NCBI GenBank assembly: GCA_945877135.1
Contig: CAMCQY010000002.1
Coordinates: forward strand, 22,796 to 86,795
Direction: 5' to 3'
Length of the DNA: 64,000 nucleotides
DNA from: Candidatus Kuenenia stuttgartensis
Lineage (GTDB): Bacteria > Planctomycetota > Planctomycetia > Pirellulales > UBA1268
Below, piece by piece: positions 42,824-57,112 of this stretch. Under the pieces are notes generated by a model, which ran no database searches, was not told the DNA's origin, and saw only the letters and a program-made list of their open reading frames with translations. A program made the position numbers and the translations under genes. Each line of letters begins with the position of its first letter. Positions within the stretch are counted from its first letter, which is position 1.

Positions 42824-43951
42824 ATGAGCAGCGGTTCCGCAGTTCCTGCAGAGAATGCTCCCGCGGCGGCCGCCGGGGCGGCGGCTGGCAGCACGTATGC
42901 CAGCGACATGGCCACCCCGGAGCACATTGCGCAACTGACGCAGCAGCTTTCGACCCTGCTCAACGACACCGTCGAGCACATCGCCGGCCTCAATCGGGAG
43001 GCCCGCATTCTCGCGCTGAACGCCGAAATCGAATCGGCGCGGGCAGGCGACGCGGGCGTGGCGTTCGGTGTGGTCGCCAAGGCGATGTCGCAGCTCTCTG
43101 AAAAAACCGGCGACTCCGCCAAGGAACTGGCCCGCGGGTCGCGGGGATTGATCCGCGAAATGCAGCAGGTGACCGAAGTGCTGCAGACGAAGATGCGCGG
43201 CGAACGGCTCTCAGATCTCGCGCTGACGAACATCGATCTCGTGGACCGCAATCTCTACGAGCGTTCATGCGACGTGCGGTGGTGGGCCACCGATGGCAGC
43301 GTCGTCGCGGCCCTGGCAGCGCCGACCGAGGAAAACCGCCGCTTCGCCAGCCAGCGTCTGGGCGTGATCCTCAACGCCTACACGGTCTACTTCGATCTCG
43401 TGCTCTGTGATCTCACAGGCAAGGTCGTGGCCAACGGTCGGCCCTCCCAGCATGCGGTCACTGGCATGATGCAGGACCAGGCCCCCTGGTTTCAGGCCGC
43501 CATGAAAACCCGGAGTGGCGACGAGTTCGGTTTCCAGTCGGTGCATCACTCGCCACTCGTCAACCACCAGCGGTCGCTGGTCTACTCCTGCGGCGTGCGG
43601 GCCGGAGGCGAATCGCATGGGGGACTGCTCGGGGTTCTTGGCATCGTGTTCAACTGGGACGCTCTCGGCCAGACCATCCTCGACCGCATGCCGCTGACGG
43701 CCCACGAAAAGCAGCGTGCCATCGCTGGTTTTGTGGATTCGGAGGGAAAAGTCTTGGCCGACTTTCCAGCCGGCTCTTTGCGAGACACGTTTGACACCTC
43801 CCTGTTTCATGGCCTCCGTCAGGGTCAGAAGGGATATGGAGTGCATCAGTTCTGCGGCCGCGAGTATTGTGCCGGGTTCGCCATCTCGCCCGGGTTCGAG
43901 ACCTACGCCACGGGCTGGTCGTCGCTTGTGATGGTGTCGCCCGATCTGTGA
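42824..43951 (+). CDS. Soluble protein with an MCP-tip-like N-terminal domain and a Cache/PAS-like C-terminal domain
   Basis: aa ~55-100 NREARILALNAEIESARAGDAGVAFGVVAKAMSQLSEKT resembles the conserved MCP hairpin tip. No TM segment or HAMP domain. The C-terminal ~230 aa (NLYERSCDVRWWATDGS...) look like a ligand-binding alpha/beta sensor fold. Confidence 0.55.
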   Translation: MSSGSAVPAENAPAAAAGAAAGSTYASDMATPEHIAQLTQQLSTLLNDTVEHIAGLNREARILALNAEIESARAGDAGVAFGVVAKAMSQLSEKTGDSAKELARGSRGLIREMQQVTEVLQTKMRGERLSDLALTNIDLVDRNLYERSCDVRWWATDGSVVAALAAPTEENRRFASQRLGVILNAYTVYFDLVLCDLTGKVVANGRPSQHAVTGMMQDQAPWFQAAMKTRSGDEFGFQSVHHSPLVNHQRSLVYSCGVRAGGESHGGLLGVLGIVFNWDALGQTILDRMPLTAHEKQRAIAGFVDSEGKVLADFPAGSLRDTFDTSLFHGLRQGQKGYGVHQFCGREYCAGFAISPGFETYATGWSSLVMVSPDL

Positions 43952-43994: not shown

Positions 43995-45293
43995 CTATGC
44001 CGGCGAGGCCGCGGCGTTCCGGAACTGTTCACGGGCTTCGTGAAACCGGGCGTTGGGCGTCAGTCCGGCCGGATCGGCGCTGAATTCGGGACGCAGCCGT
44101 TCCAGGAAATACATCTCGACCGCGGTGCGGTTCTTCACGGCAATGCTGCCCCGCGGCGTGCACTCAAAGAAAGGCTCCACCCACCTGTGGGTAGCTGCGG
44201 AAATATTGATCCGTCCGGCCTCGCCGCCGCTCTCCATGCGGCTGGCCGTGTTCACGGTGTCGCCCCACAGGTCGTAGGTGAACCGCTGTTCGCCGATCAC
44301 GCCGGCCACGAGCGGCCCGGTATGGAGCCCGATCCTGATCGCAAAAGTCGGCATGCCGGTTCCCCCCCACTCCCTGGCCGCTTCCGCCACGCACTCGCGG
44401 ATCGCCATCGCCAGCAGCGCGGCGTCGAGGGGGTGGGTGGCATTCGCGGTGGGAACGCCACCGGCTGCCACATAGGCGTCACCGATCGTCTTGAGCTTTT
44501 CCATCTGGCATCGTGCCGTCAGCGCGTCGAACCGTCGGAAGTATTCCTCCAGACCGTTGATCAGCTGTTTGGGCTCCATCGTCTCGGCCACCCGCGTGAA
44601 GCCGACGAAATCGGTGAACAGGACCGTGACAGCGTCGAAGTGCCGTGGCTGGCTCTGCCCTCCGCTTGAGAGTTCGTCGGCAATCTCTCGGGGAAACACG
44701 CGGTAGAGCAACTCCTGGGTCTTTTGCAGGCTCTCTCCGAGTTGCTGGCTGGCGACCTGGAGTTTGGAGTGCATCTCCTCCAGCTTCGTGTTTTGACGAA
44801 GAATGTTTTCGTAGGTTGAGAGGAGCAGGTTCAAGAGTTGCCGCCGGCTGACGTTGAGTTGCATCGTCTCGCCGGCGTACTCGAGCGGCAGTGGTTCACC
44901 GGGCGTATCCGGGGCGGACAGGTGGCGGAGCAGGTGGTCGATGCGCTCGAGCACGTGAGGCGGGTCGTAGGGCTTGGTGACGTAGGCGGCAGCCCCTTCA
45001 CGCAGTCCCATGAGAATGTCGGACGTGGCGGCCAGCGCCGTGAGCATGAGCACCGGAATGTGCCGCAGGTCAGGATCGGCCTTGAGAGTCCGACAGAGTT
45101 CATGGCCGTCCATTTCGGGCATCTCGACATCGGAGACGACGAGGGCCGGCCGGTGAAGGCGGGTCAAGGCCAGGGCCTCAGTGCCGTTCGCACCCCAATG
45201 GACCAGATAACCGGCCGCTTCCAGCGCCGTCTTGAGGATCCGCCCCTGCAGGCGGCTGTCCTCCGCGATCACGATCGTCAGTGGTGCATCCAT
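43995..45293 (-). CDS. Response-regulator receiver fused to a class III adenylate cyclase
   Basis: REC domain: IAEDS...VVSDVEMPEMDG...LTA...K. Coiled-coil linker with the transducer-like element LLYRVFPREIADEL. Cyclase domain: VLFTDFVGFT, KLKTIGDAYV and YDLWGDTVNTASRME (metal Asp residues, Lys/Asp adenine-specifying pair, Asn/Arg). Start placed at ATG 45293; TTG 45356 is possible. Confidence 0.85.
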   Translation of the reverse strand: MDAPLTIVIAEDSRLQGRILKTALEAAGYLVHWGANGTEALALTRLHRPALVVSDVEMPEMDGHELCRTLKADPDLRHIPVLMLTALAATSDILMGLREGAAAYVTKPYDPPHVLERIDHLLRHLSAPDTPGEPLPLEYAGETMQLNVSRRQLLNLLLSTYENILRQNTKLEEMHSKLQVASQQLGESLQKTQELLYRVFPREIADELSSGGQSQPRHFDAVTVLFTDFVGFTRVAETMEPKQLINGLEEYFRRFDALTARCQMEKLKTIGDAYVAAGGVPTANATHPLDAALLAMAIRECVAEAAREWGGTGMPTFAIRIGLHTGPLVAGVIGEQRFTYDLWGDTVNTASRMESGGEAGRINISAATHRWVEPFFECTPRGSIAVKNRTAVEMYFLERLRPEFSADPAGLTPNARFHEAREQFRNAAASPA

Positions 45294-45359
45294 GGTCCCA
45301 AGGATACCCGCCCTGCTCAAATGTGGGATGAGATTCTCCCACCCCACGGAGATCAACTG

Positions 45360-45815
45360 TCAGCCGTTTCCCGGTTGATGGGGCCGGAGACTCGCGTCTG
45401 TCTGGCCTGCGGCGGCCGTGTCGCGGATCACCGCTGCATACTTGGCAAAGAGCGAGATCAACCGCTCCTTGTCGAACGGTTTGACCACGAAGTCGAGAGC
45501 CCCCAGAGCGAAGCACTCCCGAAGCTTGGCCCGTTGGTCCACGGCGCTGACCATCACCACGCGTGCGCTAGGGTCTGCGGCCCGAAGTTCGCGGAGCGTC
45601 TCCACCCCGTCGAGTTCCGGCATGACGATGTCGAGCGTGACGAGATCGGGCCGGTGTTCGGCGTAGCGGTCGAGGCCTTCACGGCCGTTGGTGGCCTCGG
45701 CTACGACATCCCACCCGGCCTCGCGGGCAATCCCGGCGATCCGCATTCGCATGATGGTCGCATCATCGACGACCAGCAGCCGAGGGGCACGTGCCCCCAC
45801 CAGGTTCGCATTCAT
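45360..45815 (-). CDS. cheY: CheY-like single-domain response regulator
   Basis: LLVVDD...LVTLDIVMPELDG...VSA...KP. AAGGGAGA lies 6 nt upstream of ATG 45815. Confidence 0.88.
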   Translation of the reverse strand: MNANLVGARAPRLLVVDDATIMRMRIAGIAREAGWDVVAEATNGREGLDRYAEHRPDLVTLDIVMPELDGVETLRELRAADPSARVVMVSAVDQRAKLRECFALGALDFVVKPFDKERLISLFAKYAAVIRDTAAAGQTDASLRPHQPGNG

Positions 45816-45841
45816 CGTAGTCTCCCTTGCCATTGCGCCCA

Positions 45842-46330
45842 TTACGCCAAGATTTCCGTGCCTTGACCGGCGGTCTCGACCGTCACCACGCCGGTGACGA
45901 CGTCGACGGTCAGCCGCCGGCCATGCCGGCCGCCGCAGAGACGGCCGGTGATCGGTATGCCGAAATCCAACAGGATCTTCTCGATCGCCAGAACGTTCTG
46001 CTCGCCGATCGGCAGGCCCGACTGGAAAGCGAACATCGCCGCACCCCCCACGAGTTTTGCGGTCACCGCGAGCGTCGGCTCCCCAGCCGCCTCGCGCACG
46101 AGCCGGAGCGTCTCGGCCACGGCCGTGTCTGCATATTTCCCGGGCGGCGAACCGCGGCCATTCGACGACGGCAGCATCACGTGTGCGAGCCCGGCCGCAC
46201 GGTGGTGGCGATTGTGGAGCACCAGACCCACGCAGGACCCGACGAAGGTCCTGAGCACGCCGCCACCCTGGGCGACGCCGATATGGCCGATGGCGACGGA
46301 ATCCCCAGGACGGCCTGGAGGCGGTGGCAT
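45842..46330 (-). CDS. cheD: Chemoreceptor glutamine deamidase CheD
   Basis: GSCVGLVLHNRHHRAAGLAHVMLP...AKLVGGAAMF...GRLCGGRHGRRL. Start placed at ATG 46330. Confidence 0.85.
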   Translation of the reverse strand: MPPPPGRPGDSVAIGHIGVAQGGGVLRTFVGSCVGLVLHNRHHRAAGLAHVMLPSSNGRGSPPGKYADTAVAETLRLVREAAGEPTLAVTAKLVGGAAMFAFQSGLPIGEQNVLAIEKILLDFGIPITGRLCGGRHGRRLTVDVVTGVVTVETAGQGTEILA

Positions 46331-46341
46331 GTCAGCCGGAA

Positions 46342-46959
46342 TCACGTGCCAGCCCCCGGATCGACGGCCGATGGCATGAGTGCCGCGAGACCGGCGGCGT
46401 CGGGCAGAAAGACGAGACCACAGCTGACGGGCGTGCCGTCGATGCGGAACTCGGTCCGCGCGAGCAGCACGATGTCGGACAGGAGCGGCTGCTCCATCAG
46501 CACCGCTCCCATGACCGCCTCGGGATAGTCGCGAAGAAAGACCGGTGGAGAGGGGAGGATGCCGGCGGCTCCGGCCGGACCGAGCGCCGCGCAGATGGCG
46601 TTGAGGTAGGCACAGCCGACGATGTTGGCCGTCTCGACGACGGCCGACCGCTCGAGGTCGCCCCACGCCGTGGACGTGCCGGCCGGCCGCTCGAGCAACG
46701 TGTCGGCCAGAGACAGGCCGGCGTCGTCATCGGACGCGAGCAGGAGCAGGCCGCCGATCGCCCCGTCGATCCGCATGGCACAGCCGCAGATCAACGCGTC
46801 GCTCGATCCCATGACCGCCGCGGCTTCCTCGATCGGGAGCGTGTCCAGCCGTTGCACCGAGAGGGTGGCGGGCCGGCCGAGCCACTTGGCCAACGCGTGA
46901 GAAGCATCGTCCGCGCCATGGTGGAAGAGGGCGGCCAGTCGGCCGTTGTCGGGCGTCAT
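46342..46959 (-). CDS. cheC: CheC/CheX-family CheY-P phosphatase
   Basis: Size and pattern fit, including ERSAVVETANIVGCAYLNAI (CheC-type E..N motif). Its ATG overlaps the cheA stop (ATGA). Confidence 0.75.
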   Translation of the reverse strand: MTPDNGRLAALFHHGADDASHALAKWLGRPATLSVQRLDTLPIEEAAAVMGSSDALICGCAMRIDGAIGGLLLLASDDDAGLSLADTLLERPAGTSTAWGDLERSAVVETANIVGCAYLNAICAALGPAGAAGILPSPPVFLRDYPEAVMGAVLMEQPLLSDIVLLARTEFRIDGTPVSCGLVFLPDAAGLAALMPSAVDPGAGT

Positions 46960-49172
46960 GGGTGCACCTCCGTCATGGCATGCGACCGCATGACGATGTC
47001 CACGACCGCCGAGGCATCGAGCAACAGGCAGACTTCGCCATCGCCCAAGATGCTCGCCCCGCCGAGGCCGCGAATCCGCATGAAGTTTTCGTCGAGCGAC
47101 TTGACGACGAGGTCTTGGGTGCCGAGCAGGCTCGATACGCATACGGCGACGGCCCGCGAACCGGAGTGAATGACGAGCACGGCCCCACGCGGCGCCGGCT
47201 CCGCAGCCGTGGATGGCCAGGAGAAGATTTCGTCCATCTCAACCAACGGCAGAAATTCACCCCGGATGTCGCACACCCTGCGGCCCCCGATCGACAGGAT
47301 GCAGTCATCGGTGACCGTGACGAGTTCCCGGACGTTTTCCACCGGCACGGCAACGGCTGCCTGTTCCATCCGGAAGAGCATGCACCGGGCGATGGCCAGC
47401 GTCAGTGGAAGACGGATGACAAATGTCGTTCCCACGCCAAGCGTCGAGTCGATGTCGATCGATCCACTCAAGGCCTCGATTCTGGTTCGGACGATGTCCA
47501 TGCCGACGCCCCGTCCCGAGATGTTGGAGACCTCCTTCGCGGTGCTGAAACCTGGCTGCCAGATGAAGTCGGTCAGTTCACGGGGGCTGAGGCTGGCCGC
47601 TTGGTCGGCCGAGACGAGCCCGCGGGCAACGGCACGGTCGCGAACCCCTTCGAGGTCGATGCCGCCGCCGTCGTCGCTGATCGAGATGATGACGCTGTTG
47701 CCCCGCTGCGAGGCGGCGAGTCGCACCGTGGCCATCTCCGGCTTGCCTCGTCGCAGCCGAACGTCGGCAGGCTCGATCCCGTGGTCGATGGCATTACGGA
47801 CAAGGTGGACAAGAGGGTCGCCGAGTTCGTCGATCATCCGCTTGTCGAGTTCGGTCTTTTCTCCCGCCAGCTCGAGCGTCACGTTTTTGCCGAGCTCATT
47901 CGCGATGTCGCGGACCGACCGCTTGAACCGGTTCAGCAGCGGGCCAACCGGCACCATCCGCGTGCTGAGAACACCGCGCTGCAGGCTGTCGGCCACGCGG
48001 GTGAGGTGATCGACCGACTCCACGAGTTCGGCGTACCGGCGGTGCCCCTCCTCCCACAAGCGGCCCTGCTCTTCGAGCTTTTCGAGCTGAGATTCACAGG
48101 CGGCGGCGGCCCGATCGATCGGGCCAGACGCCGATCGTATGATCGCCTCCACCGCCTCGCGAAGGGAGTGGGTCGTGCCACCCGATCTGCCGCCGACGGC
48201 TGCCTTCCGAAAGAGTGGGGCCATGTCGGCGACGAGTTGCACAAAGCGGGCGCGACTGACGACCAGTTCACCGACAAGGTTGAGCAGCACGTCGAGACGC
48301 TCGACGCCAACCCGCATCGTCTCGACAACCGCGCCGGCTTCCGTCGGCGCGGGGGGGGCAGCGGGCTCGGCCGGTGGCTCGACATCGAGCTCGACGCCGA
48401 CGACCCCATCGACATCGGCGGCGATCGTGATCGCGCTGCCGGTGGCGGCGGTGCGGAGCATGATATCCAGCGTCCGCAGTTCGGTGCTCGTGGCGAACTC
48501 TGCCGCCTCCGGAGAGGACTCCACGACGACGCCGAGGCCGCCGAGCCGCGCGAGCACCAATTCGGCCTTCAGGTCGGCCATGGCAAGCCCAGGGGCGAAC
48601 TGAACGCGGATCCGGCGGACCCGCGCGTTGCCCACGGGCGGCGGCGTTGGGACGGCTGGCGTCGCCGGCGGCGACGCTACGGCCGGCTCAACGGCCGGTG
48701 TCGGCGGCGCCGAAGGTAAGGTTGGCGCCGTTGCTGCAGTGGGCCCTGCGGCCGGTGTGGTCTGCCCCAGCTTCTTGACGGCCTCGAGCAGTTCATCAAC
48801 CGGTTCGAGTTTCTCCCCCTGCCGCAGCCGATCGTTGCAATGCCGGAAGTAGTCGATGCACCGCAGGGCCGCCTCGATCGTCGGGCCATCGAGCAGCAGG
48901 CTGCCCGACCGGAGTCGCTCGAAGTGGCTTTCGAGGTGATGGGCCAGCCCCGTGATCCTGTCGAGCCCAAGCATGGCCGCCGAGCCCTTGATCGAATGAA
49001 TGAGCCGGAAGGCCTCGGCGATCCGGCGGGCGTCGCGGGGCTCCGATTCAAGCGCCAGCAACAGCTGCACGAGCTGGTCGCACTGCTCACCCGTCTCGTC
49101 GATATAGACGCTGAGGAATTCCGCCATGTCGTCGGCGGGCATATCCTGGTTGCGGCGGCTGCTGTCGGCCAT
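46956..49172 (-). CDS. cheA: Chemotaxis histidine kinase CheA
   Basis: Hpt motif HSIKGSAAMLGL. HATPase boxes HLVRNAIDHG, DDGGGID and GRGVGMD. C-terminal CheW-like domain. A long Pro/Ala-rich linker follows P1. Confidence 0.95.
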   Translation of the reverse strand: MADSSRRNQDMPADDMAEFLSVYIDETGEQCDQLVQLLLALESEPRDARRIAEAFRLIHSIKGSAAMLGLDRITGLAHHLESHFERLRSGSLLLDGPTIEAALRCIDYFRHCNDRLRQGEKLEPVDELLEAVKKLGQTTPAAGPTAATAPTLPSAPPTPAVEPAVASPPATPAVPTPPPVGNARVRRIRVQFAPGLAMADLKAELVLARLGGLGVVVESSPEAAEFATSTELRTLDIMLRTAATGSAITIAADVDGVVGVELDVEPPAEPAAPPAPTEAGAVVETMRVGVERLDVLLNLVGELVVSRARFVQLVADMAPLFRKAAVGGRSGGTTHSLREAVEAIIRSASGPIDRAAAACESQLEKLEEQGRLWEEGHRRYAELVESVDHLTRVADSLQRGVLSTRMVPVGPLLNRFKRSVRDIANELGKNVTLELAGEKTELDKRMIDELGDPLVHLVRNAIDHGIEPADVRLRRGKPEMATVRLAASQRGNSVIISISDDGGGIDLEGVRDRAVARGLVSADQAASLSPRELTDFIWQPGFSTAKEVSNISGRGVGMDIVRTRIEALSGSIDIDSTLGVGTTFVIRLPLTLAIARCMLFRMEQAAVAVPVENVRELVTVTDDCILSIGGRRVCDIRGEFLPLVEMDEIFSWPSTAAEPAPRGAVLVIHSGSRAVAVCVSSLLGTQDLVVKSLDENFMRIRGLGGASILGDGEVCLLLDASAVVDIVMRSHAMTEVHP

Positions 49173-49184
49173 GGCGGCGATCTT

Positions 49185-50015
49185 TCAGGGTTTCTGGTAG
49201 GCGAAGGTCGAGCGCCGCTCGAGGCGCTCGAGGAAATCGTGTGCGCCATCGGTCGAACCAGCCACGAGGAAACCGCCGCTGTTGAGCGCATTGACAAGAT
49301 GCCGCAGGGCGACCGGTTTCGAGCCGCGGTCGAAGTAGATCAGCACGTTCCGGATGAAGATGCAATCGAATTTCGGCCCCGGCATCGGGTCGAGGAGGTT
49401 GTGCCGGCGGAATTCGCACAGCTCTGCAACCGTGGGCTTAAGCCGCCATGCGTCTCCGGCGCGGTCGGCGATGAAGTGACGGGCGAGGCGTTCCGGACTG
49501 ACCAGCTCGACCGCCTTTTGTCCGTAGGTCGCGGCGCGTGCCGTCTGCAGGGCCGCCTCGCAGATGTCGGTGCCCACGATCTGCAGTGTCCAGCCCGCCA
49601 GGCGCGGGGCATTCTCCGCCAGGCAGATGGCGAGCGAATACGGCTCTTCCCCGCTGCTGCATGCTGCCGACCAGACCCGCAGCGACCGTTCCCGGCGCCC
49701 GGCCGCCGCCCGCGCGATCACATCGTCGAGGAACGGGCCCGCGAACCATTCGAAGTGATCGTTGGTGCGGAAGAAGTGGGTCTCGTTGGTGGTGATGGCG
49801 TCGATGAACGCCTCCAACTCACCAGCCACGGTCCCGGCCGTGAGGAGCTTGTAATAGTCGTCGAACGACTCAAGCCCGCGGTCGCGGAGCCGGCGCCGGA
49901 TCCGGTTGCTCAGGAGGGCGGTCTTGCCGTCGAGCGTCCAGATTCCCGTGTGTTCGTAGATGAACTTTTGGAACATCGTGAACTGTTCGGGTGTCAGCGA
50001 GATCAATCCGTTCAC
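49185..50015 (-). CDS. cheR: Chemotaxis protein methyltransferase CheR
   Basis: FFRTNDHFEW and RVWSAACSSGEEPYSLAI (SAM-binding). Confidence 0.93.
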   Translation of the reverse strand: MNGLISLTPEQFTMFQKFIYEHTGIWTLDGKTALLSNRIRRRLRDRGLESFDDYYKLLTAGTVAGELEAFIDAITTNETHFFRTNDHFEWFAGPFLDDVIARAAAGRRERSLRVWSAACSSGEEPYSLAICLAENAPRLAGWTLQIVGTDICEAALQTARAATYGQKAVELVSPERLARHFIADRAGDAWRLKPTVAELCEFRRHNLLDPMPGPKFDCIFIRNVLIYFDRGSKPVALRHLVNALNSGGFLVAGSTDGAHDFLERLERRSTFAYQKP

Positions 50016-50059
50016 GGCAGCTCCTTCTCCGCACGCCGCGATGACGCCGGCGGGTAGCG

Positions 50060-52663
50060 TTATACCCGGAAGCGCTTCACGAGGTCACGCAGGCCCTGTG
50101 CCTGGGCGCCGAGTTCCTCGGCGCTGGCGGCCATCTCCTCGGCGGCGGCGGCGTTCGACTCGGTGGTCTGCGACACCGAACGGATCGCCTGTTTCACCTC
50201 GCCGGCATTGGCCGACTGCGACTCCGACGAGGCCGCGATGCTGGCGATCCCAGCTGCCGTTGACTCGACGGCGGTGACGATCGCCGCCAGCGACTGCCCG
50301 ACCTTCTCGGAGAGATCGGCCCCCTCCTGCACCCGCTGGGTCGACTGGTTGATCAGCTGGGTGATCTCCTTGGCGGCCTCGCTCGCCCGTTCGGCGAGCT
50401 TTCGCACCTCGTCGGCGACCACCGCAAACCCGAGCCCGTGCTCTCCCGCCCGGGCCGCTTCGATGGCGGCGTTGAGCGCGAGCAGGTTGGTCTGGGCTGC
50501 GATCTCGCTGATCACCTGGATGATGTCGTTGATCTGCTCCGACGACCTGCGGATGGTCCGCATCGAGTCGATGGCATCGTGGACGGCCTGACTGCCGGCC
50601 TGCGCCAGTTGCGTGGTGCGGCTCGCCTGGGCCCGTGATTCGACGGCGCTCTTCGAGATCACCGCGATCGATGAGGCCAGCTGTTCCACGGCCGCCGTCA
50701 TCTGTTCGACGCTGGCGGCCTGCGACTGCGCTCCGTCGCTGAGGCTGCCGGCACTCTCGGCGATCATCCGCGCACCGTCGTTCTGCTGTTCCGCAGCTTC
50801 GGAGATCTGGCGGATAACGTCCCGCAGATCGCCGAGCATGCGGCCGGCGTTGCCGGCGAGGGCCGCCATATCGTCATCCCCGTCAGCATCGACGGAGATG
50901 CTCAGGTCTCCCTTGGCTGCCGCCCCGAAGACACCCGACAGGACGCCCACCTTCGTCTCGAGGCTCTGCTTGTCGGACGCCATCTGTTTCTGCAGCTCTT
51001 TCTCCCGTTCCTCGCTGCGGACGCGGTCGGTGATCACGTCCCAGGTGATCAGCGGGCCGATGTAGCGGCCGCTCGAGTCGTTGAGGGCCGAAATGTTGAG
51101 GTCGAGCACTTCCGTCCCGAGTGTTACCTGCTCGCGGCGGGGCAGGCTGTCGGGAGTGACCAGAAGCTTCCAGGGGAGCTGCGGCGGGGCCGGAAGGATG
51201 TCGAGTGAACCGCCCACGATTTTATCCACTGGACGGGGCAAGAAGTTCTGCAACAGCCGCAGCGACTTCTCCGACGCCGGATTCATGTAGCGGATCGTGC
51301 CGGTGGTGTCTGCCTGGATCAGCCGCACCGACGTGTTGCCGACCATTTCGGAGAGCTGTTGCTGTGTCTCCTGATCGCGGGTCAGACGACGGGCGATGAA
51401 GAAGGACGACAGCCCGATGCCGGTAGCGGTCAACCCGAAGAGAAGGAGGCCAAACCGACGCAGCCGCAGCACCGGGGCCATCACCTCAGACTCGTCGATT
51501 TCAGAAATCAGCGCCCAGCGGACTGCTCCGTTGCCGGCGGTGTCGCCCTTGAAGACCGTGACCGGCGTCCAAGAGGAGAGTACGGGTTGCTGGCGGTAGT
51601 CGCGGCCCAGGGCCGTGCCCGACTCGCCGGCGTCGAGGGCGCTGCGGACCGGGATGGTGTCAACCTTGAACTTTGGATCGATAATCGTCGATTCGACGCC
51701 AAGATCCTTCGCGAAACGGGAGTTGGAGCGGAACATCCGGTCCGGACCGATGGCGTAGGTCTCGCCGGTCTCGCCCAGGCCCGTCGTCTCTCCGATGATC
51801 TCGTTCGTCTTATCGAGCGGCAACTGGAACGCCAGCACGCCAACGACCGTGTCGCCGTCGAGGAGTGGCGTCGCGATGAAACTCGCCGGCGCCATCAAGG
51901 AGGGCAGATAGCGGCTGTACTGTCCGTAGGCGATGGTTCCGGGACGGCCCATCGCGACCGCCTCGCGGAACGCCTTGGCCAGGTTGCTCGAGGCGAGCGG
52001 ACCGGTTGTCAGTGATGCCCCGAAATCGATCTCCTTGAACACCGTGTAGAGGATCGTGCCCGAGGTGGCGTCGATGAGGAAGATGTCATAGACGCCATAA
52101 CGTTCGAGCATTTCACGGAAGATCGGGTGCACCGTGGCGTGTGCGCGGGAGTAGGCGGAGCCGTCGTCTGCGGCGTCGAGCCGTTGTTTCGAACCGACCG
52201 GATTGGGATTTCCCCGCAAGTAGCCGTCCTGCAGCATCGTCCCGCGTGCGCCGAGGGCGTCGATGTAGGGCCGCACGTCGAACTCGTCGCCATTATTCTT
52301 GTTGCGGTAGAGCGGCGCGAACTCGGCGGCATAGTAGGCGGTGAGGTCCTGCCGCATTGCCGTCAGCGACGTGGGGTTTGCCGGCAGTTCCTGCCAGGCC
52401 TTCCGAAAGGCAGCAAGAGCCTCCCGGGGCAGCGGCCCGCTGGCGGCGACGAGGAGTTCCTCGCGCATGGTCGAGAAATACCGTTCGACCGCCTGGGCGG
52501 TGATCGTCCGGACCGCCTCCAGCCTCGCGAACGCCTGCTGGCGGAGGGAATCGGCCGCCGAGCGGTACATCGCCAGGCCCAGCAGGGCCAGCGGCACGAG
52601 CGACATCGTCAGCAGCGCCGCGAGCACCAGGTTGCGGAGTGATCGGTCGGAAGACATCTTCAT
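50060..52663 (-). CDS. Methyl-accepting chemotaxis protein (TM, double-Cache-like periplasmic domain, TM, PAS-like domain, MCP signalling domain)
   Basis: Canonical tip [41 protein letters not shown]. Two TM segments flank a ~330-aa extracytoplasmic region. Start placed at ATG 52663 (MKMSSD). Confidence 0.92.
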
Positions 52664-52664
52664 C

Positions 52665-53183
52665 TCATGAAGCCTTGTCGGGGGGTGTGACGCCGGGAAC
52701 GCCGGCGCGGTGGACGCCGGCGAGGCCGGCCGGATCGAGGAGGCTGGTGGCGTCGAGCAGAATGAACAGATCGTCGCCGGCACGGGCGAATCCCTCGACC
52801 GACCGCTGCCCGTCGGCCACGACCGAGTCGGGAGCGGAGTGGATCTGGTCTACGGGGATGCGAATCACCTGCGATACGGCGTCAACCATGCAGCCCATGG
52901 TGCGACTGCCGACGTTGACGACGATCGTGCGGGTGTTGGCGTCCGACTCACGCGCCGGCAGCCCAAACAAGAGCCGCAGGTCGATGACGGGAATGATCGT
53001 GCCACGAAGGTTGCTCACACCGACGACATAGGCGGGCACGTCGGGTACCCTGGTCACGCTGCCGGACGTGATGATTTCCTGGATTCGCTCGATGCGAAAC
53101 AGGTACTTTTGGCCGGCAATTTCAAAGCCGACGAACTGCGCCGAAGCGGCCTGTCTGACCTCTGGGGGGCGGACCGAATCCAT
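52665..53183 (-). CDS. cheW: Chemotaxis coupling protein CheW
   Basis: [21 protein letters not shown]...[22 protein letters not shown]. Only the 3' 519 nt of the 510-aa ORF-track entry are credible. Confidence 0.9.
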
Positions 53184-53390
53184 GCCGGTGATACCTGTGC
53201 TGAGGCGACGTGCGGGCCGCGAGACGATGTCGCCCGGATCGACGGGCGACTCTCCGAGATATAGCTCGGGAATTGGGGCGATACAAATTTGTGTCGATCC
53301 TGACGGATGGGGGAGGTGCCTTTCGGCGGCAGCATCGTTACGATATGCGCAAGCCCACCTCGCGTCAGCCCACCCGCTCCGTGTCGCACC

Positions 53391-54455
53391 ATGTTCACCG
53401 GCGTTCTCAAGGTTGTCGTGGTCGACGATTCCGGGCTCTACCGGCAGATGCTTCTCACGGTCCTCGGCCGGATTGCGGGGGTGGAGGTCGTCGGAACTGC
53501 TGCCGATGGCGATGCGGCGGTGGATCTCATTGCACGGGTCAGACCCGACGTGGTCACGCTCGACGTGCAGATGCCGGGACGGGACGGGATCGAGGTGCTG
53601 CGGGCCCTCAAACAACACGGACTGTCGCCGCGGTCGATCATGGTGAGCAGCCTCACCGCCCAGGGAGCACCGACGACGGTCGCGGCCCTGATGGAGGGGG
53701 CCTTCGACTTCATCCTCAAGCCCATCGGCCTCGATCTCCACGTCACCCGCGACATGATCCAGCGAGAACTCACCGAGAAGTTGGCCGCCGTACGGGAGAG
53801 CATGGGGGCTCCGGCTGTGGCCGCGACGCTGCCGCCGCCAACGCGGTGGCCCGTGCCCTCCGGAGGAGCTCGCTTCGATGCCATCGTGATCGGTGCGTCC
53901 ACCGGGGGCCCCCAGGCCCTGCGGTCTGTGATCCCACTCTTGCCCGCCGATCTTCCGGTACCGGTCTTCATCGTGCAGCACATTCCGCCCCAGTTCACGG
54001 CCAGCCTGGCCGAACGGCTTGCCGGGATGTCGCGAATGCGGGTCGTGGAGGCGGCCGACGGCATGGTTGTCGGGCCGGGCCGGGTCTTCGTGGCACCGGG
54101 GGGCAGGCATCTTGGCGTGGGGCGTCGCGGCGAGCAGGTCGTGTGTGTGCTCGACGACGGTCCGCGGCGTCGTGGCTGTCGGCCTTCGGTCGATCATCTT
54201 CTGGAGTCTGCAGGGCGACTCTACGACGGGAGGGTGCTGGCGGCGGTGCTCACCGGGATGGGCTGCGACGGTCTCGACGGATGCCGCGAACTGAAGAAAC
54301 GAGGCGGCGCGGTGCTCGCGCAGTCGGCCTCAGGATGCGTCGTCTACGGGATGCCGAAAGCGGTCAGCGATGCCGGATTGGTGGACGAGATGGTGCCCCT
54401 TGAGCAGATGGCGGCCCGGCTCTCAGCCTGGCTGCAGGGTGCCGCTGCGGAGTGA
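53391..54455 (+). CDS. cheB: Protein-glutamate methylesterase/deamidase CheB
   Basis: REC domain (VVVVDDS...VTLDVQMPGRDG) plus methylesterase domain (VIGASTGGPQAL, ...GMGCDG...). Confidence 0.93.
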   Translation: MFTGVLKVVVVDDSGLYRQMLLTVLGRIAGVEVVGTAADGDAAVDLIARVRPDVVTLDVQMPGRDGIEVLRALKQHGLSPRSIMVSSLTAQGAPTTVAALMEGAFDFILKPIGLDLHVTRDMIQRELTEKLAAVRESMGAPAVAATLPPPTRWPVPSGGARFDAIVIGASTGGPQALRSVIPLLPADLPVPVFIVQHIPPQFTASLAERLAGMSRMRVVEAADGMVVGPGRVFVAPGGRHLGVGRRGEQVVCVLDDGPRRRGCRPSVDHLLESAGRLYDGRVLAAVLTGMGCDGLDGCRELKKRGGAVLAQSASGCVVYGMPKAVSDAGLVDEMVPLEQMAARLSAWLQGAAAE

Positions 54456-54696: not shown

Positions 54697-55839
54697 CTAT
54701 TCCAGCAGTTCCAGCCAGGCGCGAATCTCGTTGTCATATTCGCTTGCCAGGCCGCCGACGATCAGCTGACGGTGAAAGCTCGCGGCGCCCTCCTTCACGA
54801 GGTCGGCATCCTCGGCGCTCGGAAACCGCCGCGCCGGGTCGGAGGCGATCATGCCCCGGATGAAGTTCATCAGCAATTCGTTGCAGGTGACGTCGGCCGG
54901 CAGGATCTGCGGGAGCCGATGGGCGAGCGACCGCTTGGCCTCGAGCAGATCGCGATAGGACTGCAGCCCCGCGAATGGCGGCTGTCCCGAGAGCATCTCG
55001 ATGAGCACGTAGCCGAGACTGGCCAGATCGGAACGGGGCGTGTTTTCGCGGCCCTCGAGCACCTCGGGGGCCGCGTACGACGGCGTGCAGGTGCGGTTGG
55101 GGGGCATGTCGTCGAGTGCGAGGGCCGAACCGATGTCGATGATCTTCGCGTTGCCCGTCCGCTTCACCATGATGTTGGAGCTCTTGATGTCGCCATGCAC
55201 GATCTCCTCCCGGTGCAGGGCGGCCAATGCTGCCAGGCACTCGCGAACGATCGCGATCGCCACGCCGGGCTTGAGCCGCGATTGCTGGGGGCCCGCCGTC
55301 ACGATCACGTTGTTCAAGTGCCGCCAGCGGTCGTCGCCCACGCTCGCCCGGGTCTGGGCGAGTAGTTCCGGAGCCAGCAGCCGCGAGAGGTCGTAGCCAT
55401 CGATCCACTCCATCTCCATGATGCGGATCCGCCGCTGCTCGACGAAGTTGTGCACGTCGAGCAGGTTGTCCTGCTGGATCTGGGCGACTCGGGAGGCCAC
55501 CTTGGCGATGCGGTTCATCCCCTCGTCGTAGATGGCCTCCGACTCGTATCGCTCTGGGGAGAAGATCTTGAGGGCCACCGGCAGGCTGAAATTGTCTGTG
55601 CCACGCCGTTCGGTGAGAAACACCACCCCCTGCCCTCCCGCACCGAGTCGGCGGGTGAGCGCATGGTAGTCGGTCCAGGTGAGTCGCCCCGCGTCGAGGA
55701 TTTCCCCGTAACGGGAGAGCAGTTCCTCAGGACAACGGCTGCCCACGTCGCCGCTGACAGAAATCGTTGGCCGACCGTCCTGCGCCGGGCGGCCCTCCTG
55801 GTACATCGTGGTGTTCATCGTGTCTGGCCGGCTGGTCAT
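54697..55839 (-). CDS. Hanks-type serine/threonine protein kinase (soluble)
   Basis: GAGGQGVVF, VALKIF, HGDIKSSNIMV, DIGSA and SYAAPEV. No TM segment. Confidence 0.88.
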   Translation of the reverse strand: MTSRPDTMNTTMYQEGRPAQDGRPTISVSGDVGSRCPEELLSRYGEILDAGRLTWTDYHALTRRLGAGGQGVVFLTERRGTDNFSLPVALKIFSPERYESEAIYDEGMNRIAKVASRVAQIQQDNLLDVHNFVEQRRIRIMEMEWIDGYDLSRLLAPELLAQTRASVGDDRWRHLNNVIVTAGPQQSRLKPGVAIAIVRECLAALAALHREEIVHGDIKSSNIMVKRTGNAKIIDIGSALALDDMPPNRTCTPSYAAPEVLEGRENTPRSDLASLGYVLIEMLSGQPPFAGLQSYRDLLEAKRSLAHRLPQILPADVTCNELLMNFIRGMIASDPARRFPSAEDADLVKEGAASFHRQLIVGGLASEYDNEIRAWLELLE

Positions 55840-56840
55840 GGTGTTCCGTGGTGTGCTTCAGCGTTGGGCGGTTCCGGGAAACCATCCGGCTCGGGAAAAC
55901 CAAGCCGCTTGTCGACCAGATTCCGCAGACTTCCGCCAGCCAGATACCTACGGAGATTGTCGCAGAAAAAATCGGTCATCGCATCAATTCGGCGGGCCGA
56001 TTGGCCGGCGACGTGGGGCGTGATCAGAAGTCTGGGCGCCCGCCAGAGGCGGCTATCCGGGGGCGGCGGTTCGACGGGCGTGACATCGACGGCGGCGGAG
56101 TCGAGGTGGCCGCTCTCGAGGGCGTCCACCAACGCGTTTTCGTCCACCAGTCTGCCGCGGGCCATATTGACGAGGATCGCGCCGCGTTTCATCCGCGCGA
56201 TCGCGGCGGCATCGATCATGCCGCGGGTCTCGGGGGTAAGCGGCGCGCAGAGAAAGAGGATGTCGGCCTCCTCCAGCACGGAGGGAAGCGTTTCGGGGCC
56301 GCCGAGGCGTTCGACAGCCGCCGGCTTGCGGACCGGGAAGTAATCGGTGGCGAGAATTCTGACGCGGAAGGGCGCAAGCACCTCTACCAGTCGCCGGCCT
56401 ACACCCCCCAATCCCACGATGCCGACCGTCGCGTCGGTGAGGTCGCGGGTGGGCCGTCGGACAAACTCCTGCCGCTGTTGTTGCGTCATGAAGAGGGGAA
56501 GCCGCCGGGTGCAGGCGATCGCCAGTCCGAGGCCATGCTCGGCGACCTGGTCGGCGAGCACTCCGGAGGCGCTTGTGACGATGATGTCGGAGCCGACCAC
56601 CACCGGCACCAGACAGTGGTCGAGCCCGGCAGCCGACGACTGGATCCAGCGGAGCCGGCCACAAGCAACGACAGCTTCCCAGGGGACCGGCACCTTGGGA
56701 TGACCGCAGAAGATGTCGGCGGCGGGCAGTTCGGCCGCCACCCGCTCCTGGCCGGCGTCAACCAGTTCGGCGTGCGGGGCCACCACCTGAATCTGGGCGA
56801 TGTGGTGGGGCTCGACGGGATAGCAGAGGACGATGCGCAT
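55836..56840 (-). CDS. D-isomer-specific 2-hydroxyacid dehydrogenase family protein
   Basis: NAD-binding VGIVGLGGVGRRL. Catalytic region LVNMARGRLVDE...LITPHVAGQS. Start placed at ATG 56840. Its stop overlaps the kinase ATG (ATGA). Confidence 0.85.
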   Translation of the reverse strand: MRIVLCYPVEPHHIAQIQVVAPHAELVDAGQERVAAELPAADIFCGHPKVPVPWEAVVACGRLRWIQSSAAGLDHCLVPVVVGSDIIVTSASGVLADQVAEHGLGLAIACTRRLPLFMTQQQRQEFVRRPTRDLTDATVGIVGLGGVGRRLVEVLAPFRVRILATDYFPVRKPAAVERLGGPETLPSVLEEADILFLCAPLTPETRGMIDAAAIARMKRGAILVNMARGRLVDENALVDALESGHLDSAAVDVTPVEPPPPDSRLWRAPRLLITPHVAGQSARRIDAMTDFFCDNLRRYLAGGSLRNLVDKRLGFPEPDGFPEPPNAEAHHGTP

Positions 56841-57112
56841 GGCCACGGTTTTCACCCGAAAGGGATGAAATTGGCAAGTCGAGGAATGGAAAACGGGGGC
56901 CAGCGGCGAGCCCGCGGCTTGCCCAGACCGGTTTTCGTGGTTCAATATGAGCAAGTGGGCGAAACGATTCGCTCGTGCATGCCGATAGTTAAAGGTCGGA
57001 CTGTGCGGGCGTTTCCGCCGGGTTGTGCCGGTCGCCCACTGCACGTGGCGATTCCAGGCATGCTGCTCGCCCCCCTGTCTTGACGTTCACTGTGTCTTCG
57101 CGGGTGACTTTC

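Follow-up and report, generated by a model that had tools for sequence, protein, structure and literature searches.

The locus analyzed here raises the question of whether a chemotaxis-type (Che) pathway can have the synthesis of a cyclic nucleotide as its output, and whether the cyclase concerned belongs to the operon beside which it lies. In a stretch of 64,000 nucleotides, referred to here as the window, a set of che genes on the minus strand is followed by a gene for a receiver domain (REC) fused to a class III nucleotide cyclase, and the initial annotation, made from the sequence alone, had read this as a complete chemosensory operon ending in the cyclase. The window lies on contig C2 of a 3.92-Mb metagenome-assembled genome (MAG) from the order Pirellulales (240 contigs, 93.8% complete), the close relatives of which are Pirellulales MAGs from a freshwater lake time series. 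G000 denotes the genome of the window, other G-numbers are comparison genomes and L-numbers are sampled loci. Four CheA genes were found in G000, on contigs C2 (window), C20, C51 and C129. With respect to the question posed, a link of the cyclase to the operon is plausible, with the adjacent CheA as the best explanation for its kinase; the cyclase itself is an accessory branch and not an integral operon member.

The REC-cyclase gene (43995..45293, minus strand) encodes a protein of 432 aa, in which Pfam placed the receiver at residues 7-118 (Response_reg, E 1.5e-23) and the cyclase domain at residues 217-398 (Guanylate_cyc, E 3e-52). The two are joined by a helical linker of about 90 residues, and a weak HNOBA-like match within it (residues 165-208, E 1.7e-4) is read as a signalling helix or transducer element on the basis of general knowledge of class III cyclases. 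The residues of receiver phosphorylation are intact (E11, D12, D55 in VSDVEMPEMDG, T85 and K107). All six canonical class III catalytic residues are likewise present, with D228 in the motif FTDFVGFT, K268 and D272 in KTIGD, and D341, N348 and R352 in YDLWGDTVNTASRME; among them are the two metal-binding Asp residues, the Lys/Asp pair for ATP (K268, D272) and the transition-state Asn and Arg. These motifs align with the C1 and C2 motifs of AC9, and the best solved relatives of the domain are mammalian membrane adenylate cyclases, receptor guanylate cyclases and mycobacterial Cya/Rv1625c-type chains (class IIIa). As both the receiver and the catalytic residues are intact, the protein is predicted to be an active, phosphorylation-controlled and ATP-specific class IIIa-like adenylate cyclase. 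G000 also encodes two other class III cyclases and three proteins that bind cyclic nucleoside monophosphates (cNMP), and therefore a cyclic AMP (cAMP) network exists in this genome.

Gene calls in the window cluster were checked with Pfam and NCBIfam profiles, and all nine genes of the initial annotation were recovered, in the order cheW-mcp-cheR-cheA-cheC-cheD-cheY-REC-cyclase on the minus strand with cheB divergent on the plus strand. The gene cheW (52665..53183; CheW, E 1e-35) meets mcp at the junction TGAgATG, as had been noted. The mcp gene (50060..52663; MCPsignal, E 4e-45), encoding a transmembrane methyl-accepting chemotaxis protein (MCP) of 867 aa, is followed after 44 nt by cheR (49185..50015; GTG start; CheR_N + CheR, E 6e-49), and this after 12 nt by cheA (46956..49172). 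The 738-aa CheA carries Hpt, H-kinase_dim, HATPase_c and CheW domains, with a single Hpt domain and without a C-terminal receiver by Pfam; its NCBIfam CheA scores (344-377 bits) are not discriminating, the CheA_Halo model reaching 377 bits and the E. coli CheA model 344 bits. The previously noted ATGA overlap connects cheA to cheC (46342..46959), the product of which belongs to the CheY-P phosphatase family, gave no match in Pfam and was detected solely by the NCBIfam Thermotogales CheC model (CheC_Thtogales, E 6e-13). After a gap of 11 nt comes cheD, of the receptor deamidase family (45842..46330; Pfam CheD, E 1e-19; NCBIfam CheD, E 3e-26), which joins cheY (45360..45842; Response_reg, E 1e-28) through the junction TAATG. 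CheY is a single-domain receiver with intact residues D17, D18, D62, S90 and K112 (numbering from the ATG at 45815). On the other side of cheW, cheB (53307..54455; Response_reg + CheB_methylest, E 3e-63) encodes a receiver joined to a methylesterase, and its real start is probably the internal ATG at 53391, because orthologue alignments start at residues 15-34. The core of CheA, CheW, MCP, CheR and CheB is therefore encoded together, with CheC, CheD and CheY also present, and profile matches support both of the adaptation modules that had been proposed, CheB/CheR and CheC/CheD. The MCP consists of a large periplasmic sensor, a cytoplasmic PAS-like segment and the signalling domain. Its earlier description as a dCache-PAS receptor held in part: neither dCache nor PAS was called by Pfam (PAS_10, E 0.05), but the periplasmic part (aa 20-441) is homologous to MCPs with a Pfam-called dCache_1 domain (E 1e-53, 29-32% identity).

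We tentatively favor the adjacent CheA as the kinase of the cyclase, at a confidence that falls somewhat short of an even chance, and we infer phosphotransfer from this CheA, activation of the cyclase by phosphorylation and a sink role for CheY and CheC. A ligand on the dCache-like MCP would change CheA autophosphorylation, and CheA~P would phosphorylate three partners, namely CheB, CheY and the cyclase receiver, the last at D55. Phosphorylation of the receiver would then act through the helical linker on the cyclase dimer to produce more cAMP, which would be read by the three cNMP-binding proteins of G000. CheY together with the phosphatase CheC would form a competing phosphate sink or act on a non-flagellar target, and not on a motor switch.

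Conservation of position speaks for this reading. Full-length cyclase orthologues (87-95% identity) were found in 7 other species-level genomes of the genus, making 8 species with the window, and in all of these the gene lies between cheY and a convergent gene for an MCP-tip/Cache protein. The linkage of cheY to the cyclase has thus been kept down to 87% protein identity across a spacer that has itself diverged. Recurrence of the juxtaposition points in the same direction. A different REC-cyclase paralogue, 70% identical to the product of G000 C8:30056-31183, is che-linked in G004 and G019, lying directly upstream of cheA-cheW-mcp-cheR-cheB in the former (L126) and after the gene for a REC-PP2C protein, at the end of a cluster of the type found on C20, in the latter (L127); otherwise this C8-type cyclase is an orphan conserved across the family. 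Linkage to che genes was also seen in 16 of the 18 members of a separate, unrelated REC-cyclase clade, which come from Betaproteobacteria, Verrucomicrobiota and Planctomycetaceae. Because che clusters make up about 1% of the genome, repeated juxtaposition of che genes and REC-cyclases is unlikely to be due to chance, which is an argument and not a computed probability. The proposal of a Che pathway with a cyclic-nucleotide output draws support from the intact receiver, the ATP-type cyclase, the position on the same strand 66 nt behind cheY that is kept in 8 species, the similarity of the cyclase receiver to another che-linked receiver and the descent of the cyclase family from terminal genes of che operons (both described below), but not in the form of a cyclase that is integral to the operon.

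A number of observations weigh against wiring to the adjacent operon, and the first of these concerns the spacer between cheY and the cyclase gene (45294..45359, minus strand). The initial annotation had given a distance of about 66 nt before the cyclase, and 66 nt on the same strand do separate the cheY stop from the cyclase ATG. Among the eight genomes the spacer measures 66-75 nt and is strongly diverged, with the exception of the sequence CGG.TAT(C/T)CT, which is invariant and located 7-8 nt before the ATG. In the window this corresponds to TATCCT at 45301-45306, 7 nt upstream of the start codon. The arrangement TATCCT-N6/7-ATG also precedes the stand-alone homologues L130, L132 and L134 in unrelated contexts, and the box is absent where homologues overlap the upstream gene (L136-L139). 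TATCCT is accordingly a candidate -10 element for a leaderless transcript, and the gene likely has a promoter of its own; the conserved TATCCT-N7-ATG argues for transcription of the cyclase independently of the che genes. Across the genome, 3.2% of TATCCT occurrences precede an ORF-opening ATG, compared with 1.3% (maximum 3.1%) for permuted hexamers, a weak enrichment. No terminator-like hairpin was found in the gap and its predicted RNA fold was no more stable than that of shuffled sequence (z = -0.5), and read-through from cheY into the cyclase gene is possible. A scan of the gap for sigma-70 promoters found none, using an E. coli-type consensus only, by which a promoter is not excluded.

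The second set of opposing observations concerns genomes in which the cyclase is missing. The same cluster is without it in G019, of the same genus, and in G024, which is filed under another genus. In both, cheY abuts the convergent gene, with the stop codons about 5 nt apart in G019. A paralogous cluster (~55% identity) in other members of the genus also lacks the cyclase. In a tree of nine genes (3,344 columns), the cyclase-less clusters of G019 and G024 were sister to the cyclase-bearing cluster of G010 with support of 99/99, and grouping of the six included cyclase-bearing clusters was rejected by the approximately unbiased test (p-AU 0.0115), although this grouping was named after an earlier tree had been seen. 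A four-gene tree could not decide the matter (p-AU 0.17-0.31). Recent insertion of the cyclase, a candidate suggested by its absence from G019 and G024, was dropped, as the nine-gene tree nests the cyclase-less pair beside G010. The simplest reading of these trees is that the cyclase was gained once, before the cluster lineage radiated, and was subsequently lost once. With respect to a deletion scar in G024 and G019, only a match of 12 of 13 nt was found, which is not significant (E 4.4). As the che operon stays intact in the two clusters that lack the cyclase, it works without it. The search for the same layout in relatives therefore gave a mixed outcome, retention in 8 species against absence from G019, G024 and the paralogous cluster. 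The initial annotation had named a promoter of the cyclase's own, together with a lack of co-conservation with the che genes, as the result that would overturn it; in silico, the TATCCT box, these losses and the orphan homologues described below largely amount to that result.

Two observations on the surroundings of the cluster may be added. In G008 (L037), genes for a Ser/Thr kinase and a 2-hydroxyacid dehydrogenase adjoin the mini-MCP gene, and their counterparts in the window (54697-57044) adjoin cheB, so that the che cassette of G008 seems inverted relative to its flanks. The cluster of G024 is sister to that of G019 despite being filed under another genus; either the cassette moves between genomes or contigs have been misbinned.

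The third set concerns the wider family of the cyclase. Searching a protein collection retrieved about 4,000 relatives, of which the full-length ones of about 430 residues form a series at 86-92%, 66-78%, 57-60% and 43-47% identity. All five sampled homologues at 66-78% identity were orphans among housekeeping genes, and no che gene was present within 10 kb of any of the five. The five sampled at 43-60% identity, among them one from Leptospira idonii, were each the last gene of an operon resembling the Wsp system, in the order CheR with a tetratricopeptide repeat (TPR) region, long CheW, dCache MCP, CheA fused to a receiver (CheA::REC), CheB and cyclase. In these operons the cyclase gene either overlaps cheB or starts 1-17 nt after it, and the CheA::REC hybrid was seen in the four whose contigs extend far enough. 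The family tree has the Wsp-linked proteins at its base, a clade of 58 members that is filled by orphans, and the window clade nested among these orphans. The family is thus ancestrally the terminal output of Wsp-like che operons, in the position of WspR, and became stand-alone in Pirellulales later; with Wsp-linked members basal and the window clade among orphans, the arrangement in the window represents a secondary capture by a different che operon. Also of weight is G041, an orphan-bearing genome with Wsp-like and C20-type che clusters only. As it has no CheC/CheD-type cluster, the cyclase family functions without this type of operon.

These orphan relatives give substance to an explanation in which no CheA is involved: the cyclase would take its phosphoryl groups from a histidine kinase outside the Che systems or from small-molecule phosphodonors, or be constitutive, and it would have landed in a permissive gap between convergent genes with no functional effect on chemosensing. 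Such a gap does exist, with stops separated by only about 5 nt in G019, which lacks the cyclase; a promoter-like box precedes the cyclase gene, and its closest outside relatives are orphans. We nevertheless consider this explanation improbable. Deeper members of the family are embedded in che operons, the juxtaposition of che genes and cyclase recurs within the genus, and the closest receiver paralogue in G000 is itself che-linked. This paralogue belongs to a REC-SpoIIE/PP2C protein with about 480 residues and an open frame of 492 codons; the cyclase receiver is 50% identical to it, and the next best receiver in G000 reaches 38%. The similarity also counts towards a kinase other than the adjacent CheA. 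The REC-SpoIIE/PP2C gene is convergent with the second che cluster of G000, CheA-CheW-MCP-CheY-CheB-CheR (C20:5939-14757). In most genus members checked the REC-PP2C gene lies on the same contig as a CheA, and it stood beside cheR in the 3 loci examined (G000, G002 and G019). A chimera unique to this clade, composed of the REC-PP2C receiver and a local cyclase domain, had been considered as the origin of the protein, and was ruled out by the full-length homologues at 43-78% identity.

The Wsp-like ancestry of the family also directs attention to the cluster on contig C51 (1844-9917), which reads MCP-CheW-CheR(TPR)-CheW-CheA::REC-CheB. Beyond cheB, its last gene, lies a convergent FHA-domain gene, and there is consequently no output regulator at this site. 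A hybrid CheA with a receiver and no stand-alone CheY was found in the C51 cluster and not in the window operon. This cluster is an equally natural kinase source for the cyclase family, which completes the points weighing against the adjacent CheA. According to the corresponding alternative, the cyclase is wired to the C51 CheA::REC, which would phosphorylate it as the hybrid kinases presumably do with the cyclase homologues encoded next to them, its place behind cheY is incidental, and the acceptors of the window CheA are only CheY and CheB. Consistent with this, the five homologues at 43-60% identity all directly follow cheB of Wsp-like operons, precisely where the C51 cluster stops, G041 carries this cluster (CheA::REC 72% identical) in addition to its orphan cyclase, the window cyclase keeps a promoter-like box and the family tree puts its clade among orphans. 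On the other hand, at least 11 genomes of the same genus in the CheA search have a Wsp-like CheA and no cyclase of this family, from which it follows that the Wsp-like system is independent of the cyclase. Linkage to the CheC/CheD operon has moreover been kept through 8 species, and REC-cyclases have joined three types of che cluster in the genus, which is hard to achieve by chance insertion. Sequence similarity did not discriminate the cognate kinase, as the C51 and window che proteins were both about 30% identical to those of distant Wsp-like operons, and the alpha-1 residues of the receivers, compared by eye, were not decisive either. Taken together, wiring to C51 is a possibility that we regard as rather unlikely, and the adjacent CheA is retained as the preferred kinase.

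The initial annotation had further assigned the window CheY a classical role in motility, and in its model CheA splits flux between a flagellar CheY and the cyclase as the integral last gene. In G000, which is 94% complete, no match was found to FliM, FliN (FliMN_C), FliG_C, Flagellin_N, Flagellin_C or Flg_bbr_C (rod/hook), and within the genus none of 16 genomes yielded FliM, compared with 9 of 10 other families of the order. As the flagellar switch genes were not found, a classical CheY for motility is unsupported as far as flagellar motility is concerned. Remnants of a flagellar export gate were observed at two sites, one with FlhA, a FliA-like sigma factor and an FlgM-like gene (C137:2690-6649), and the other with FliP, FliQ, FliR and the N-terminal part only of FlhB (C16:31550-37038), the latter stopping before the C-terminal autocleavage domain. 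The model can call upon these genes, upon the shared strand and 66-nt gap free of a terminator, and upon the intact receivers of both CheY and the cyclase. Set against it are the missing switch, filament and rod/hook domains, the two nested sister clusters and the paralogous cluster that lack the cyclase, the orphan status of the nearest outside homologues and the promoter-like element of the cyclase gene, and we consider it very improbable as formulated.

With the adjacent CheA as the preferred kinase, the history outlined above could amount to output swapping, in which a Wsp-type cyclase was detached and then recaptured by a CheC/CheD/CheY pathway in a genus without a flagellar switch, such that one CheA feeds both a CheY/CheC sink and cAMP synthesis. 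We regard this extended scenario as doubtful, though possible. If it is true, former taxis machinery has become a second-messenger sensor with built-in adaptation. What makes the locus interesting is not so much rarity as the fact that the history of its cyclase can be followed, from embedded through orphaned and recaptured to lost again. Interest also attaches to the genus: it has four che clusters, REC-cyclases have joined three cluster types in it and no flagellar switch was found, and it is a good comparative system for the rewiring of pathway specificity and for the roles of Che proteins without flagella.

Several neighboring features were also recorded. The gene convergent with the cyclase (42824..43951, plus strand) encodes a soluble protein of 375 aa with matches to MCPsignal (E 6e-13) and dCache_1 (E 6e-7), and in all genomes examined it adjoins this che cluster, whether or not the cyclase is there. 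An MCP hairpin-tip fragment is N-terminal and a dCache-like domain C-terminal, the reverse of the usual receptor order, and no transmembrane segment was seen by eye. More than 3,000 proteins belong to its family, most of them hypothetical by annotation, and they include one at the head of a che operon (L143), one beside flagellar genes (L142) and one beside a che-cyclase cluster in a Chthoniobacteraceae MAG (L080). Elsewhere in G000, the sensor of the C20-cluster MCP is 55% identical to that of the window MCP, and the ligands of the two pathways may therefore be related. Another cyclase of class III, the third in G000, is a protein of about 720 aa (C9:30314-33851) with an N-terminal sensor 30% identical to the window MCP sensor, and a protein with a cNMP-binding domain is encoded about 1.3 kb downstream; the two are possibly a pair of sensor-cyclase and receptor. 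The window-type cyclase was lost from two genomes, and one of these is G019, in which the C8-type paralogue is che-linked.

Among known systems, chemosensory outputs other than motility operate mainly through cyclic di-GMP, as in Wsp, and through indirect control of cAMP, as in Pil-Chp. In gene content the window operon resembles the CheC/CheD/CheY chemotaxis systems of Bacillus subtilis and Thermotoga maritima, with CheA, CheW, CheR, CheB, CheC, CheD and CheY together and with both the methylation and CheC/CheD modules, but no FliM/FliN/FliG target or filament genes were found in G000. In the Pil-Chp/CyaB system of Pseudomonas aeruginosa, a chemosensory pathway likewise has cAMP synthesis by a class III cyclase downstream. 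The coupling there is indirect, via PilG, and tied to type IV pili, and CyaB is without a receiver, whereas the window cyclase itself has one and the single Hpt domain of the window CheA differs from the multi-Hpt ChpA. CyaC of Spirulina and Anabaena is a class III cyclase controlled by phosphorylation of a fused receiver, as is predicted for the window protein; CyaC has its own histidine kinase domain and two receivers, in contrast to the window protein with its single receiver and need for an external kinase.

The combination of REC-cyclase and che genes had been called unusual, a view that did not survive wider sampling. REC-cyclases adjoining che genes recur across phyla, in Betaproteobacteria, Verrucomicrobiota and Planctomycetaceae as well as at the Leptospira idonii locus and on three contigs of metagenomes or MAGs. 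One such case, a "REC - CHD mononucleotidyl cyclase" regulator in the delta proteobacterium NaphS2, had already been listed in 2012 in a survey of cheR-TPR clusters (PMC3447774). This has the same domain architecture within a che cluster of the alternative cellular function (ACF) type, but it was catalogued only, and its context is that of a Wsp-like CheR-TPR and not of a CheC/CheD/CheY operon (PMC3447774). No experimental study of a pathway from Che proteins to a REC-cyclase was found in a full-text literature search. A direct route from CheA to a receiver-cyclase and so to cAMP appears widespread, and the present locus is not the cleanest example of such wiring, for two reasons: a promoter of its own is probable for the cyclase gene, and G000 encodes an alternative kinase on a different contig.

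The closest comparison is with Wsp of Pseudomonas, the prototype of ACF chemosensory pathways, which consists of WspA-F and the REC-GGDEF protein WspR. Both loci have a Che-type core and a receiver-fused nucleotide cyclase as the last gene of the operon, and the cyclase homologues at 43-60% identity occupy the very position of WspR, after CheA::REC and CheB. They differ in that the window output is a class III adenylate cyclase and not a GGDEF protein, in that the window CheA is without a fused receiver and its operon also has CheY, CheC and CheD, and in that the window cyclase is a secondary, dispensable addition. In functional terms Wsp is the nearest system, with an adenylate cyclase replacing the diguanylate cyclase.

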